Shown here in pieces: positions 21,707-63,976 of a DNA stretch of 64,000 nucleotides. Position numbers and translations under genes: made by a program. The notes beneath the pieces were generated by a model. The model did not search any database. It was not told the origin of the DNA and worked only from the letters and a program-made list of their open reading frames with translations. The number at the start of each line of letters is the position of its first letter. The stretch's first letter is position 1. The stretch comes from Escherichia coli (GTDB lineage: Bacteria > Pseudomonadota > Gammaproteobacteria > Enterobacterales > Enterobacteriaceae), in NCBI RefSeq assembly GCF_016026235.1, contig NZ_CP065613.1; one strand, written 5' to 3'.

Positions 21707-21906
21707 TGTAATATCCTTTCTCTTTCTTAGACAGTACCTTACGGCACTGGTGTTAATACCCGATCTTCTGCGCATCCTCGCGACTAATGACAACCCTAAC
21801 CCAGCTCTATGTGGGTAAAGCCTCTCATTAGCCGCGCGAACCTCTGCAACGGAAGATCATTCATAGCAACAATACATTAGTTTCCAGTGAATTGCTGCCG
21901 TCAGCT

Positions 21907-21936
21907 TGAAAAAAGGGGCCACTCAGGCCCCCTTTT
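21907..21936 (-). terminator. rpsO rho-independent terminator
   Basis: Hairpin aaggggcc/ggcccctt with a T-run on the minus strand, just downstream of rpsO. Confidence 0.6.
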
Positions 21937-21952: not shown

Positions 21953-22318
<366 letters not shown>

Positions 22319-23793: not shown

Positions 23794-23867
23794 GGCCTGA
23801 TAAGACGCGCCAGCGTCACATCAGGCAATCCATGCCGGATGCGGCGTAAACGCCTTATCCCGCATGG
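23794..23867. repeat. REP/BIME element
   Basis: ggcctgataagacgcgccagcgtcacatcaggc and gccggatgcggcgtaaacgccttatcccgcatg between infB and rbfA. Confidence 0.5.
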
Positions 23868-28545: not shown

Positions 28546-28751
28546 GCCCACCCCCAAGACATAAAAAAAGGGCCTAAAGCCCAGTTATTCTGTAGTCAGA
28601 TAACAAAAAACCCCGATAAATCGGGGCTTTATATAACTGAACCCTATAACCGCAACTGCGGTCTGGAGCACTTTCCAGAAGGATTTTTTCAAATCCCACT
28701 ACGAAGGTCGAAGTCTTCACAGTATATTTGAAAAAGGACTCTAAGGGAAAG

Positions 28752-28828
<77 letters not shown>

Positions 28829-31730: not shown

Positions 31731-31817
31731 TGGTACCGAGGACGGGACTTGAACCCGTAAGCCCTATTGGGCACTACCACCTCAAGGTAGCGTGTCTACC
31801 AATTCCACCACCTCGGC
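31731..31817 (-). tRNA. leuU: tRNA-Leu (anticodon GAG)
   Basis: The reverse complement reads GCCGAGGTGGTGGAATTGGTAGACACGCTACCTTGAGGTGGTAGTGCCCAATAGGGCTTACGGGTTCAAGTCCCGTCCTCGGTACCA, an 87-nt class II tRNA. Confidence 0.9.
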
Positions 31818-38374: not shown

Positions 38375-38621
38375 TTGTTATACCTCTTGAATATTCCTGA
38401 TGGGGCAAGTCTTCACCCACCCCGGCTGTTCGGCCTGCCCGGCATAACTCCTCACCGGGACCAGAAGCAAAAAAATACCGACCCAGGTACAAGTCCCAGG
38501 TCAGCTACAATTCACATTTTGATAGTCATTTTACCCTGAAGTTCCCGAAGGGTCATCGTTTACTTTATAGGGCGTTGCGCCGTAGTATGACGGCTCGATT
38601 CCAGGTTGTTAGCGCGAGATT

Positions 38622-60035: not shown

Positions 60036-60760
60036 TCCAGCTGGTGTTGTTGCATAAACGGCTCACCGCCTAACTGATACATCTGCCGTAAAATCCACGC
60101 CTGACGGCTGCGCACGTAGCCCGATGGCGCGGAGACTTTGAAACGAAGTGGATTAGGTAATACAGCTGCCAGTAAGGCAGCTTCCGATCGGGTAAGTTTG
60201 CTCGCGGGTTTGTGGAAATAACGTTGTGCCGCAGCTTCGACGCCAAACACACCGTCGCCAAATTCGGCGATATTCAGGTAAACCGTCAGGATACGCTTTT
60301 TGCTCCAGACAGTTTCTATCCCCAGCGTTAATCCGGCTTCCAGCCCTTTTCGAACCCAGCTACGCCCATCCCATAAAAAGAGATTTTTGGCTGTCTGTTG
60401 AGAAATCGTTGAAGCACCGCGAATACGGTTTTCATTGCGCTCATTGTGCGCCAGGGCTTTCTCAATGGAAGCGACATCAAAGCCCCAGTGCTCAGGAAAT
60501 TTCTGATCTTCTGCGGCAATCACCGCCAGTCCCATCCACGGCGAGATTTGATCCATACTGACCCAGTCAGAATGTGCCACGTAACGAAAATTGCCATGCA
60601 GCCAGGCGCTGACCTGTCGCTCGACCATTACCGCTGAGAAGGGAACAGGCGCAACGCTAAACAACGCGATGCCCCCGCCCCAGTAAACGGCGAGGACAAC
60701 CATTAACCGCAGAAGAAAACGGCGAACAAAACTAAACACCGTTAAGCGGCTTTTACTCAT
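60032..60760 (-). CDS. mtgA: Monofunctional peptidoglycan glycosyltransferase
   Basis: 242 aa; GT51 motifs ([10 protein letters not shown] and RGASTISQQ). Confidence 0.95.
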
Positions 60761-61410
60761 TCAGCCAGAACCAGCACACGGGCAACCAGCTTATCAATGC
60801 CGCTCGCCGCTTCTGCAATGTTCTGCGCCAGCATATATGCTGGGGTGGTGACAATCTTATTGTCTTCATCAACCACGATATCATCGACAGGACACGGCAC
60901 ATGCTCCGCGCCCATCTCTTCCAGCACTTCTGCGGTATCGATATCAGTACCGATGGTCAAACGCAGCGGGAAATCGAAAATTTTCGGCAGCATCGCCGGG
61001 GCAATACACATAAAACCAAGCGGTTTTCCGGCCTGATGCATCGCTTGTGCCAGCGCCTTTAATTCACGGTCAACGGTGCATTCGCGACCAAGACTGGCAA
61101 AATTACTTAAATTCTTTGCCGCGCCAAACCCCCCCGGCACAATCAACGCATCCAGTTCAGCGGCATCGGCCTGGGCCAGAGGACGGATTTCACCGCGCGT
61201 TATTCGTGCCGCTTCAATCAGCACATTGCGCGTATCCGTCATCGCTTCGCCAGTTAAATGATTGATAACATCAACCTGCTGCTTATCAGGTGCAAAGCAG
61301 ACCGCCTGCGCACCGCTGCGTGAAATAGCTAACAACGTCAACACCGCTTCATGAATTTCAGAACCGTCATAGACGCCGCATCCGCTCAGAATTACGCCAA
61401 TTTTCTTCAT
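60757..61410 (-). CDS. elbB: DJ-1/PfpI family glyoxalase ElbB
   Basis: 217 aa from [24 protein letters not shown]. Confidence 0.9.
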
Positions 61411-61526
61411 TGTGATCATCCTTTCGCAATTGACTGAAACACATTAATTTTTTTAATAAAAATGGTACGCATCACACATTTAACTGATTCATGTAACAAA
61501 TCATTTAAGTTTTGCTATCTTAACTG

Positions 61527-61647
61527 CGTGCGGCCTGAAAAACAGTGCTGTGCCCTTGTAACTCATCATAATAATTTACGGCGCAGCCAAGATTTCCCTG
61601 GTGTTGGCGCAGTATTCGCGCACCCCGGTCTAGCCGGGGTCATTTTT
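61527..61647 (+). ncRNA. arcZ: Hfq-dependent small RNA ArcZ
   Basis: GTGCGGCCTGAAAAACAGTGCTGTGCCC...CACCCCGGTCTAGCCGGGGTCATTTTTT matches the ArcZ sequence as I remember it; its terminator overlaps the arcB stop on the opposite strand. Confidence 0.85.
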
Positions 61648-63976
61648 TAGTGGCTTTTGCCACCCACGCTTTCAGCACTTCTACGTCGTGACGCCACTCT
61701 TCTTTCATCTCTTCAATCCATTCACCGACGTTATCTTCCCAGGCAGGAAGGTCAGGAGACTGAATTTGCTGACCCAGCTGTTGCAGATGGCGTAACCCCA
61801 CTGACCCCGCCGCACCTTTAATTTTATGTCCTTCCTCAACAATGCCTTTTTTATCCTGCGCCGTCAGATTCGACTCCAGCACGCTGACATAGCCCGGCAT
61901 CATCTTCTCAAACACCGCTAACCCGTCGGTGATCAGCTTCGGTCCTACAAGTTCGAGATACTGTTCCAGCATGGGAATATCGAGCAATGCTTCTGATTTA
62001 CTGTTCTCTTCTGTCGTCACCGTACTCTCCTCATCATCCTGGGTATCCCAGAATTTCTTGATCATCGCGGTTAGCGCCGGAACAGAAAGCGGCTTACTCA
62101 GCACATCATCCATTCCAGCATTGAGGTACTCTTGTTTGTCTTTCAGCACGTTAGCGGTTAAGGCCACCAGCGGCGGTAAATCCTCTCGCGGATAACGCTT
62201 CGTCAGTTCACGAGAGATATCCAGCCCGGTCATATCTGGCAACTGAATATCCAGTAACACCAGGTCGTATTCGCCCGGTTTAAACATCTCTAGCGCCGCC
62301 TTGCCGGTCATGGCGACATCAACGCTGTTACCTAATTTTTCCAGCACAGAACGCGCGACAATCACGTTCAGTTCAATGTCTTCCACCAGTAGCACATTCA
62401 GCGCCGGTAAAGGCATATCGTCTTCATCAAACGCATCATCGACCTCTTCTGCCACCGACGGTGCGTGGATCGTCAACGTAAAGGTTGAACCTTTGCCCTG
62501 TTCGCTGGTAACCGTAATATCGCCACCCATATTTTTCGCCAGACGACGAGAAACGGCCAGACCAATACCGGTGCCGGTGGCAGGTTTACCGCCATGACTG
62601 TCTTTCACCTGGTAATACATGGCGAAGATTTTATCCAGCTCATCCTGCGGAATGCCGATACCAGAATCTTCCACTTCAAAATGCAGCATATCGCCTTCAT
62701 CGTAGCGCACGCGCACGGTAACCTGGCCTTGCTGGGTGAATTTGACGGCGTTACTGATGAGGTTCCACAGGATCTGCCGTAAACGCGTCCCGTCGGTAAT
62801 GACCTGATGCGGTAATGGCAGCGTAGGCTCCAGGTTAAAGCGCAATCCTTTTTGTTGCGCCTGCAATGCGGAGAGATTTTCCAGATCGGCAAGGAAGCTG
62901 GTGAAATCAACCGGCTGATTATCAAGCTGGACCTTGCGCCGTTCCATCTTATCCATGTCGATAATATCGTTAAAGATATTCCCCAGCGTGACGGCCGAAA
63001 CATGGATAGTTTTGAGATATTTTTCCTGCTCGGCGGTGAGTTCGGTATCCAGCAGAATGCGGCTCAGGCCGACGATACCGTTCAGCGGTGTACGCAATTC
63101 GTGACTGATGGTGGAGATAAACGTCGTTTTGTCGCGGCTGGCCCGTTCAAGCGCATCCTGATACCGCTTACGCTCGGTAATGTCGCGACCAAAGCCCATC
63201 AAACCGTGACGTTTACCCACGCGGTCGTAGTACGGCACTTTACGGATTTCAAAGCAGGCTTTGCGCCCGTCCGGGTAATCCAGCCACTGTTCATAGGTCA
63301 GTGACACATTATGACGGAACACTTTTTCATCGGTTTCAATGACTTTCGCAGCGGCTTCCGGTGAGTAAACATCAGCAGGTTTCAGATGAACCAGTTGTTT
63401 TTCGCTTTTTCCGGTCAGCAGCTCCATCGCGCGGTTACAGCCGGAAAACTCTTTATCTTCGTTACGATAAAAAACCAGGTCGGGTGAAGCATCAAGGAAG
63501 GAACGTAAGAATGAGGATTGCTGCTCGAGCTGAATTTGTGTCTCTTCGCGCTCTTTGATTTCAATTTTCAGTTGGCCGAAGGTTTCCTGCAGTTCTGCTT
63601 CCGCTTTTTCACGAACGGCAATTTCCTGATTTAGCTGGGCAATATTATCTTTTAACTGAACGTTGAGGCTCAAATCGCGCTCGCGCATCTCCTCCAGTTT
63701 TTGCACCAGCCGTGACAGACGTTGTCGTGACTCCTCCAGTTGCTCGACGACCACCGATAGAAAGTAGACCGCCCACGGCGTAATCAGCAAACCAAAGAAG
63801 ATAGAACGAATAACATCAATGCTTTCGACCTGACCATGCAGCACCATGGTTACCGCCATTTGTACCACAATGGCAAGAACGACGAGGGCCAGCGCCAGCA
63901 ACATTGAGAAGCGCACCAGACCTAACTTCATCATCAGGTCAACATAATACTGCGCCAGCAGACGAATTTGCTTCAT
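61640..63976 (-). CDS. arcB: Aerobic respiration control sensor kinase ArcB
   Basis: 778 aa; transmembrane, PAS, HisKA (H-box SHELRTPLN), receiver and HPt domains. Confidence 0.95.
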   Translation of the reverse strand: MKQIRLLAQYYVDLMMKLGLVRFSMLLALALVVLAIVVQMAVTMVLHGQVESIDVIRSIFFGLLITPWAVYFLSVVVEQLEESRQRLSRLVQKLEEMRERDLSLNVQLKDNIAQLNQEIAVREKAEAELQETFGQLKIEIKEREETQIQLEQQSSFLRSFLDASPDLVFYRNEDKEFSGCNRAMELLTGKSEKQLVHLKPADVYSPEAAAKVIETDEKVFRHNVSLTYEQWLDYPDGRKACFEIRKVPYYDRVGKRHGLMGFGRDITERKRYQDALERASRDKTTFISTISHELRTPLNGIVGLSRILLDTELTAEQEKYLKTIHVSAVTLGNIFNDIIDMDKMERRKVQLDNQPVDFTSFLADLENLSALQAQQKGLRFNLEPTLPLPHQVITDGTRLRQILWNLISNAVKFTQQGQVTVRVRYDEGDMLHFEVEDSGIGIPQDELDKIFAMYYQVKDSHGGKPATGTGIGLAVSRRLAKNMGGDITVTSEQGKGSTFTLTIHAPSVAEEVDDAFDEDDMPLPALNVLLVEDIELNVIVARSVLEKLGNSVDVAMTGKAALEMFKPGEYDLVLLDIQLPDMTGLDISRELTKRYPREDLPPLVALTANVLKDKQEYLNAGMDDVLSKPLSVPALTAMIKKFWDTQDDEESTVTTEENSKSEALLDIPMLEQYLELVGPKLITDGLAVFEKMMPGYVSVLESNLTAQDKKGIVEEGHKIKGAAGSVGLRHLQQLGQQIQSPDLPAWEDNVGEWIEEMKEEWRHDVEVLKAWVAKATKK

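Follow-up and report, generated by a model that had tools for sequence, protein, structure and literature searches.

ArcZ and Its Convergent Junction with arcB in Escherichia coli: A One-Way Terminator and a Probable arcB Read-Through

The window examined here, which is the whole 64,000-nucleotide stretch of DNA that was analysed, is E. coli chromosome and carries the small RNA gene arcZ, convergent with arcB. We consider it highly probable (about 90%) that arcZ is the gene of an Hfq-dependent, trans-acting sRNA with a promoter of its own and a one-way terminator, and that read-through transcription of arcB most likely supplies an antisense substrate for this sRNA. According to this model, transcription would start at position 61528 from a conserved promoter in the elbB-arcB intergenic region, and would end at an intrinsic terminator with a stem at 61622-61640 and a U-tail that runs to 61648. 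RNase E would release a fragment of 61593-61648, in which a single-stranded, invariant core (61594-61626) would pair with the targets. Since arcB has no terminator of its own here, its transcription most likely proceeds antisense through arcZ, and such read-through would give arcB a 3' UTR fully complementary to ArcZ. This extended complementarity, rather than the nine bases that the two genes share, would be a plausible substrate for the reported destabilisation of arcB mRNA; the repression that ArcB/ArcA exert on arcZ is, according to reports, mainly a promoter effect, which does not depend on the overlap.

In enterobacteria, ArcZ connects the sensing of oxygen by ArcB/ArcA to RpoS, the sigma factor of the general stress response, as well as to motility, mutagenesis and virulence, and a correct annotation of ArcZ in any E. 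coli window is therefore useful. Earlier publications already cover the gene, the way it overlaps arcB and the idea of a feedback between the two. Our additions are modest: the exact geometry of the junction, with an overlap by the U-tail only and a terminator that works in one direction; a species tally, in which an overlap of 9-11 nt is found in 82% of the listed species and has disappeared chiefly from Pantoea, Morganella and Pluralibacter; and the consideration that antisense regulation of any kind has to depend on arcB read-through, not on nine shared bases.

Results

ArcZ Gene and Its Neighbors in the Window

A 501-bp query around the locus found a match in 5416 of 5426 complete genomes of E. 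coli, almost always with an identity of ≥99%, and elbB and arcB were annotated under the match. In a full Rfam scan of the window, ArcZ (RF00081) was found at 61528-61635 on the plus strand, spanning the full model (1-106 of 106) with 120.8 bits, where the gathering score is 66 (E = 4.1e-27). The arcZ gene of K-12 MG1655 (b4450, 121 nt, at 3350577..3350697 on the plus strand of NC_000913.3, where arcB occupies 3350689..3353025 on the minus strand) matched positions 61528-61648 of the window exactly. Differences between the window and K-12 were present at 30 of 3550 flanking positions and at none within arcZ. An earlier note, made from the sequence alone, had proposed a 121-nt ArcZ on the plus strand at 61527-61647 and had named a covariance-model search as a check. 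The score, far over the gathering score, and the exact K-12 match bear out the presence, strand and length of the gene; the proposed position lay one base too far to the left. That we are dealing with a chance or degenerate ArcZ-like sequence and no functional gene has a practically negligible probability and is refuted by the Rfam score and the match to K-12: an E-value of 4e-27 over the full-length model and identity to an experimentally studied gene speak against it, as does the conservation of promoter, core and terminator described below.

The neighbors are those of K-12 as well. In both the window and the K-12 annotation, arcZ lies between elbB and arcB, with arcB convergent. The arcB gene, which encodes a hybrid sensor histidine kinase of 778 aa, occupies 61640..63976 on the minus strand according to the open reading frame list, the NCBIfam model NF008302 and the RefSeq annotation; its reading frame matched this ArcB equivalog over the full length with 1483 bits (cutoff 838), and the protein ends in ...AKATKK before the stop. 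Upstream of arcZ, and on the opposite strand to it, elbB occupies 60757..61410 (minus strand; ElbB equivalog of NCBIfam, 355 bits, and K-12 annotation). The window thus holds arcZ in its usual setting, as an sRNA gene that is already annotated and has been studied in depth.

A mechanically listed reading frame of 62 aa runs across arcZ on the plus strand (61462-61650); it begins 66 nt upstream of the ArcZ 5' end and was rejected as a gene. Other Rfam matches above the gathering score in the same window were the SraG sRNA, the S15 leader, naRNA4, the rimP leader, two tRNAs and the greA leader, located at 21765-21936 (+), 22166-22280 (-), 23794-23864 (-), 28563-28663 (-), 28755-28828 (-), 31734-31817 (-) and 38470-38591 (-). 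All of these are expected for this region of E. coli.

Terminator and Nine-Base Junction with arcB

The terminator scan returned the ArcZ hairpin as the sole terminator-like site in 61300-61800. This Rho-independent stem-loop, ACCCCGGU-CUA-GCCGGGGU, lies at 61622..61640 on the plus strand with its G+C stem at 61623-61639, and consists of an 8-bp stem, a 3-nt loop and the U-tail UCAUUUUUU; it was recovered by the minimum free energy (MFE) fold as well. The hairpin quoted in the earlier note, ccccggtctagccgggg, equals CCCCGGTCTAGCCGGGG at 61623-61639 and is followed by TCATTTTTT. Among the listed species loci, three of the eight stem pairs showed compensatory changes, and the five outer pairs were invariant.

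The stretch shared by the two genes is 61640..61648, which reads as the ArcZ tail on the plus strand and as AAA AAA TGA on the minus strand. Here TCA (61640-61642) is the complement of the arcB stop codon TGA, and TTTTTT (61643-61648) is the complement of the AAA AAA codons for Lys777 and Lys778. The overlap of 9 nt is therefore solely the U-rich tail of ArcZ (UCA-UUUUUU), with A/U bases only, save for the C of the triplet. No part of the G+C stem falls within the arcB coding sequence; of the extended stem, just the weak A-U pair that closes it (61622/61640) reaches the last base of the arcB stop codon. Convergent orientation and an overlap with the arcB 3' end, as the earlier note had described them, agree with the reading frame and the K-12 coordinates. 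It had further placed the terminator over the end of arcB, which is right for the U-tail, covering the last codons and the stop, and wrong for the G+C stem.

Beyond the hairpin, the minus strand continues with UGCGCGAAUACUG instead of a U-tract. Because this flank is antisense to the ArcZ core, which is invariant, no U-tract can ever follow the hairpin in the arcB direction, and none was present on that side in any listed species. The hairpin is a one-way terminator that serves the arcZ direction only. A bidirectional intrinsic terminator was considered and rejected, as the U-tract is absent from the arcB side and no terminator was called on the minus strand.

RNA Anatomy and Processing

In the Rfam consensus structure, the precursor carries a 5' stem-loop at 61547..61587 (plus strand), with a stem formed by GCUGUGCC (61547-61554) and GGCGCAGC (61580-61587). 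It is here that members of the family vary, the 5' portion being divergent between genera; a small 3' hairpin is also placed in ArcZ by the Rfam alignment. RNase E is reported to cut the 121-nt precursor into an active 3' fragment of 56 nt (PMC11331407, PMC4152358). The counterpart of this processed form in the window is 61593..61648 on the plus strand, assigned from the literature and identical to K-12, and GA|UUU at 61591-61595 would, judged by its sequence, be compatible with the reported RNase E cleavage motif. ArcZ depends on Hfq and has targets such as rpoS, flhDC, mutS, sdaC and tpx (PMC11331407).

The seed region UUCCCUGGUGUUGGCGCAGUAUUCGCGCACCCC (ArcZ nt 67-99; 61594..61626, plus strand) was identical in the 119 listed loci and contains a small GCGC/GCGC hairpin (61607-61610/61618-61621). 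When the seed was compared with the K-12 rpoS leader (-200..+3) using RNAduplex, 282 of 500 and 517 of 1000 shuffled ArcZ sequences reached energies as good; the method allows huge internal loops and cannot discriminate. Since the ArcZ of the window is identical to that of K-12, this comparison was unnecessary.

Conservation of the Junction in Enterobacterales

Species-representative genomes were scanned with a 20-mer from the ArcZ core, which gave at least 120 loci. One of them, L039 2319-2338 in a Woeseiaceae MAG, matched the 20-mer exactly and was rejected as a chance match, having no flank similarity, no ArcB and no Rfam match; by our own estimate, about 0.5 chance matches to the 20-mer are expected in roughly 300 Gb. 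Its exclusion left 119 listed ArcZ loci. The earlier note had also regarded the conserved 3' processed core as a requirement for ArcZ, and nt 67-99 were kept, identical to K-12, in 119/119 listed loci from about 35 genera, which extends 13 nt past the search pattern.

Among the matches listed, 116 loci, one per species, were analysable for junction geometry, and in all 116 the ArcB C-terminus was encoded directly beyond the ArcZ terminator on the other strand, so that the two genes converge. In 95 of these 116 listed species (82%), from about 30 genera, the complement of the stop codon (TCA or TTA) directly adjoined the final G of the stem. In the abutting loci listed, the overlap was 9 nt (n = 13), 10 nt (n = 41) or 11 nt (n = 41), and ArcB ended in Lys-Lys. 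The geometry deviated in the remaining 21/116, with an overlap of 0-2 nt (n = 9), a gap of 4-76 nt (n = 11) or an overlap of 23 nt (n = 1); among the matches listed, these exceptions were mainly from Pantoea (12/16), Morganella (3/3) and Pluralibacter (2/2), plus single cases in Mixta, Chimaeribacter and Kluyvera. A 2024 review states that ArcZ "usually overlaps ... by ten bases" and does not do so in Pectobacterium (PMC11331407). Our survey of the listed species agrees with this statement and quantifies it.

Several loci deserve a separate mention. In L024 (Pantoea sp. 1.19), the arcB frame enters the ArcZ terminator stem by 13 nt, giving the overlap of 23 nt. In L106 (Kluyvera genomosp. 3), an arcB-like frame comes to its end 86 nt short of the stem, its C-terminus (RRGGIT) is unrelated, and this odd junction may be due to a frameshift or a rearrangement. 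The Rfam threshold of 66 bits misses the ArcZ of Proteus, Providencia, Xenorhabdus, Yersinia aldovae, Photorhabdus and Morganella; with E-value reporting, these loci (L016, L064, L041, L002, L018 and L072) scored 53.6-65.9 bits at E-values of 2e-9 or lower. As the scores lie below the gathering score, their membership in the ArcZ family rests on the invariant core and synteny. Their 5' halves diverge, and the curated threshold is therefore narrow for this family.

These data bear on another explanation, in which ArcZ and arcB simply have a compact 3' junction in common, inherited as a matter of packing and without regulatory function, and all coupling of ArcB/ArcA and ArcZ works through the arcZ promoter and the trans-acting seed of ArcZ. 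The shared bases are merely UCAUUUUUU, and the overlap is lost in 21/116 listed species with ArcZ core and terminator intact; L042 (72.7 bits) and L106 (86.1 bits), both non-overlapping, exceed the Rfam gathering score. Furthermore, the U(C/U)A triplet and the U-run 3' of the stem are kept even where the arcB stop has shifted 6-22 nt away (L012, L014, L021, L023, L026, L030, L042, L051, L055, L062, L063, L068, L072, L086, L096, L097, L104 and L119). The triplet is therefore not conserved solely as the arcB stop, and the needs of ArcZ itself can explain its conservation. Against mere packing stands the recurrence of the abutment at the very same base in 82% of the listed species across some 30 genera. 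This explanation, for which further evidence is given below, is a serious possibility that we nevertheless tend to doubt.

The abutment of the arcB stop on the ArcZ stem could itself be selected. A ribosome that terminates there might occupy or melt the mirror-image hairpin of the arcB mRNA together with its A-tract, which would make both ArcZ pairing and arcB decay dependent on translation. The same-base abutment in 95/116 listed species forces ArcB to end in Lys-Lys. If this idea were true, the termination of arcB translation would be coupled to cis-antisense control, but we regard it as a long shot.

The arcZ Promoter and Its Regulation

A candidate sigma-70 promoter of arcZ lies at 61493..61521 on the plus strand, placed relative to the annotated 5' end from sequence and conservation. 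It would comprise a -35 element GTAACA (61493-61498), a spacer of 17 bp and an extended -10 element TGcTATCTT (61513-61521), and it scores under the 9-of-12 threshold of the promoter tool, hence no call by that tool. In an alignment of 50 Enterobacteriaceae upstream regions, TTTGCTATCTTA (61510-61521) was essentially invariant. Further upstream, and including the -35 element, the block TCACACATTTaACTGATTCATGTAACAA / TCACACATTTnACTGATTCATGTAACAAA (61472..61499, plus strand) consisted of near-invariant columns in the 50 Enterobacteriaceae. This block contains TCACA (61472-61476), which has been put forward as a CRP half-site in work on Klebsiella. Mutation of TCACA in K. pneumoniae lowered ArcZ, and CRP was proposed as an activator, with data from a -41 truncation as well (10.1101/2024.06.23.600155). 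The left half of a canonical CRP site was not conserved in the 61472-61499 alignment.

ArcA sites are known to be degenerate, and the ArcA box consensus GTTAATTAAATGTTA (direct repeats) had no match at ≤3 mismatches in the whole window. The action of ArcB/ArcA on arcZ is described as repression by ArcA-P at the arcZ promoter, with an antisense part of arcB mRNA only "speculated" (PMC11331407). ArcA ChIP-seq showed no site upstream of arcZ (PMC3798270), and ArcZ of K. pneumoniae was reported to show no response to deletion of arcA or arcB (10.1101/2024.06.23.600155). Since there is no ChIP-seq site, no consensus box and no arcA/arcB effect in K. pneumoniae, the promoter arm itself is not fully settled.

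arcB Read-Through and Antisense Pairing

No terminator-like site was found by the terminator scan on the minus strand from 61640 to 60270. Because the ArcZ hairpin works one way only and no minus-strand terminator follows it, we infer that arcB is read antisense through arcZ toward elbB. The putative 3' UTR or read-through zone of arcB would extend over 61411..61639 on the minus strand, antisense to all of ArcZ and its promoter, up to the start of elbB. In the annotated transcripts, complementarity amounts to the nine A/U bases, and any longer stretch depends on arcB read-through; with so short a literal overlap, antisense regulation needs the read-through. Consistent with a longer duplex, the p19-captured dsRNA cluster S-273 (U00096.2 3,348,440-3,348,771; 5,449 RPM), an abundant dsRNA of RNase III type, covers arcZ and was seen in two other datasets too (PMC7373196 Table 1). 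By approximate coordinate conversion, it corresponds to about 61369-61700 of the window.

In secondary sources, ArcZ is said to reduce the level of arcB mRNA through cis-antisense pairing to its 3' UTR (PMC4152358, PMC3937726, PMC4281340), by a mechanism that "remains to be determined" (PMC4281340). In Erwinia, an arcB translational fusion was unresponsive to ArcZ, which counts against an important antisense arm, although the fusion lacks the 3' UTR; the short A/U overlap, the 21/116 listed species that keep ArcZ with another geometry and the K. pneumoniae report count against it too. The secondary reports of arcB mRNA destabilisation by ArcZ and of a contribution of arcB mRNA to ArcZ repression, and the dsRNA cluster over arcZ (PMC7373196), also speak against the packing explanation. 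In favor of packing is the missing arcA/arcB effect on ArcZ in K. pneumoniae; those relatives in Klebsiella and Raoultella that were sampled have retained the 9-nt geometry.

A different kind of coupling would arise if polymerases coming from arcB crossed arcZ and its promoter, causing occlusion or collision, with a reciprocal effect from arcZ and no RNA-RNA pairing. Such transcriptional interference would be helped by the want of a minus-strand terminator-like site between the arcB stop and elbB, by a hairpin with no U-tract arcB-ward in every listed species, and by the location of the arcZ promoter about 120-150 bp downstream of the arcB stop. However, the ArcZ terminator halts arcZ polymerases at the arcB stop, so that little arcZ transcription should enter arcB. 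Plasmid-borne ArcZ lowers arcB mRNA in trans, which counts against interference. In addition, the dsRNA reads indicate that the two RNAs are both present and form a duplex (PMC7373196). We regard interference as improbable, and prefer the pairing of ArcZ with an arcB read-through transcript.

Discussion

The earlier note had called the overlap the physical basis of the reciprocal regulation of ArcB and ArcZ. For the arm from ArcZ to arcB this holds in part, in that antisense pairing is a plausible mechanism, by way of read-through rather than the 9 nt; for the arm from ArcB/ArcA to arcZ it does not hold, as promoter repression is independent of the overlap. Given that ArcZ persists in 21/116 listed species with a different geometry, and given the K. 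pneumoniae result, ArcZ does not require the overlap, and the overlap is not evidently enough to bring about the feedback.

Among known systems, the closest is ArcZ of K-12 itself (SraH/RyhA, RF00081, b4450), with the same 121 nt, the same neighbors elbB and arcB and the same 9-nt overlap with arcB; no difference was found inside arcZ. The junction resembles bidirectional intrinsic terminators in having a single palindromic G+C hairpin between convergent genes, and differs from them in that the ArcZ hairpin has a U-tract on the arcZ side only and UGCGCGAAUACUG on the arcB side. GadY-gadX offers another likeness, since there too the sRNA gene converges on a protein gene to whose 3' UTR the sRNA is complementary, a complementarity that for ArcZ would depend on arcB read-through; dsRNA was found at both the arcZ and the GadY-gadX loci in the p19 study (PMC7373196). 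In contrast to GadY, ArcZ is mainly a trans-acting Hfq sRNA with many distant targets. Moreover, GadY stabilises gadX (PMC4281340), whereas the reported effect of ArcZ on arcB is destabilising.
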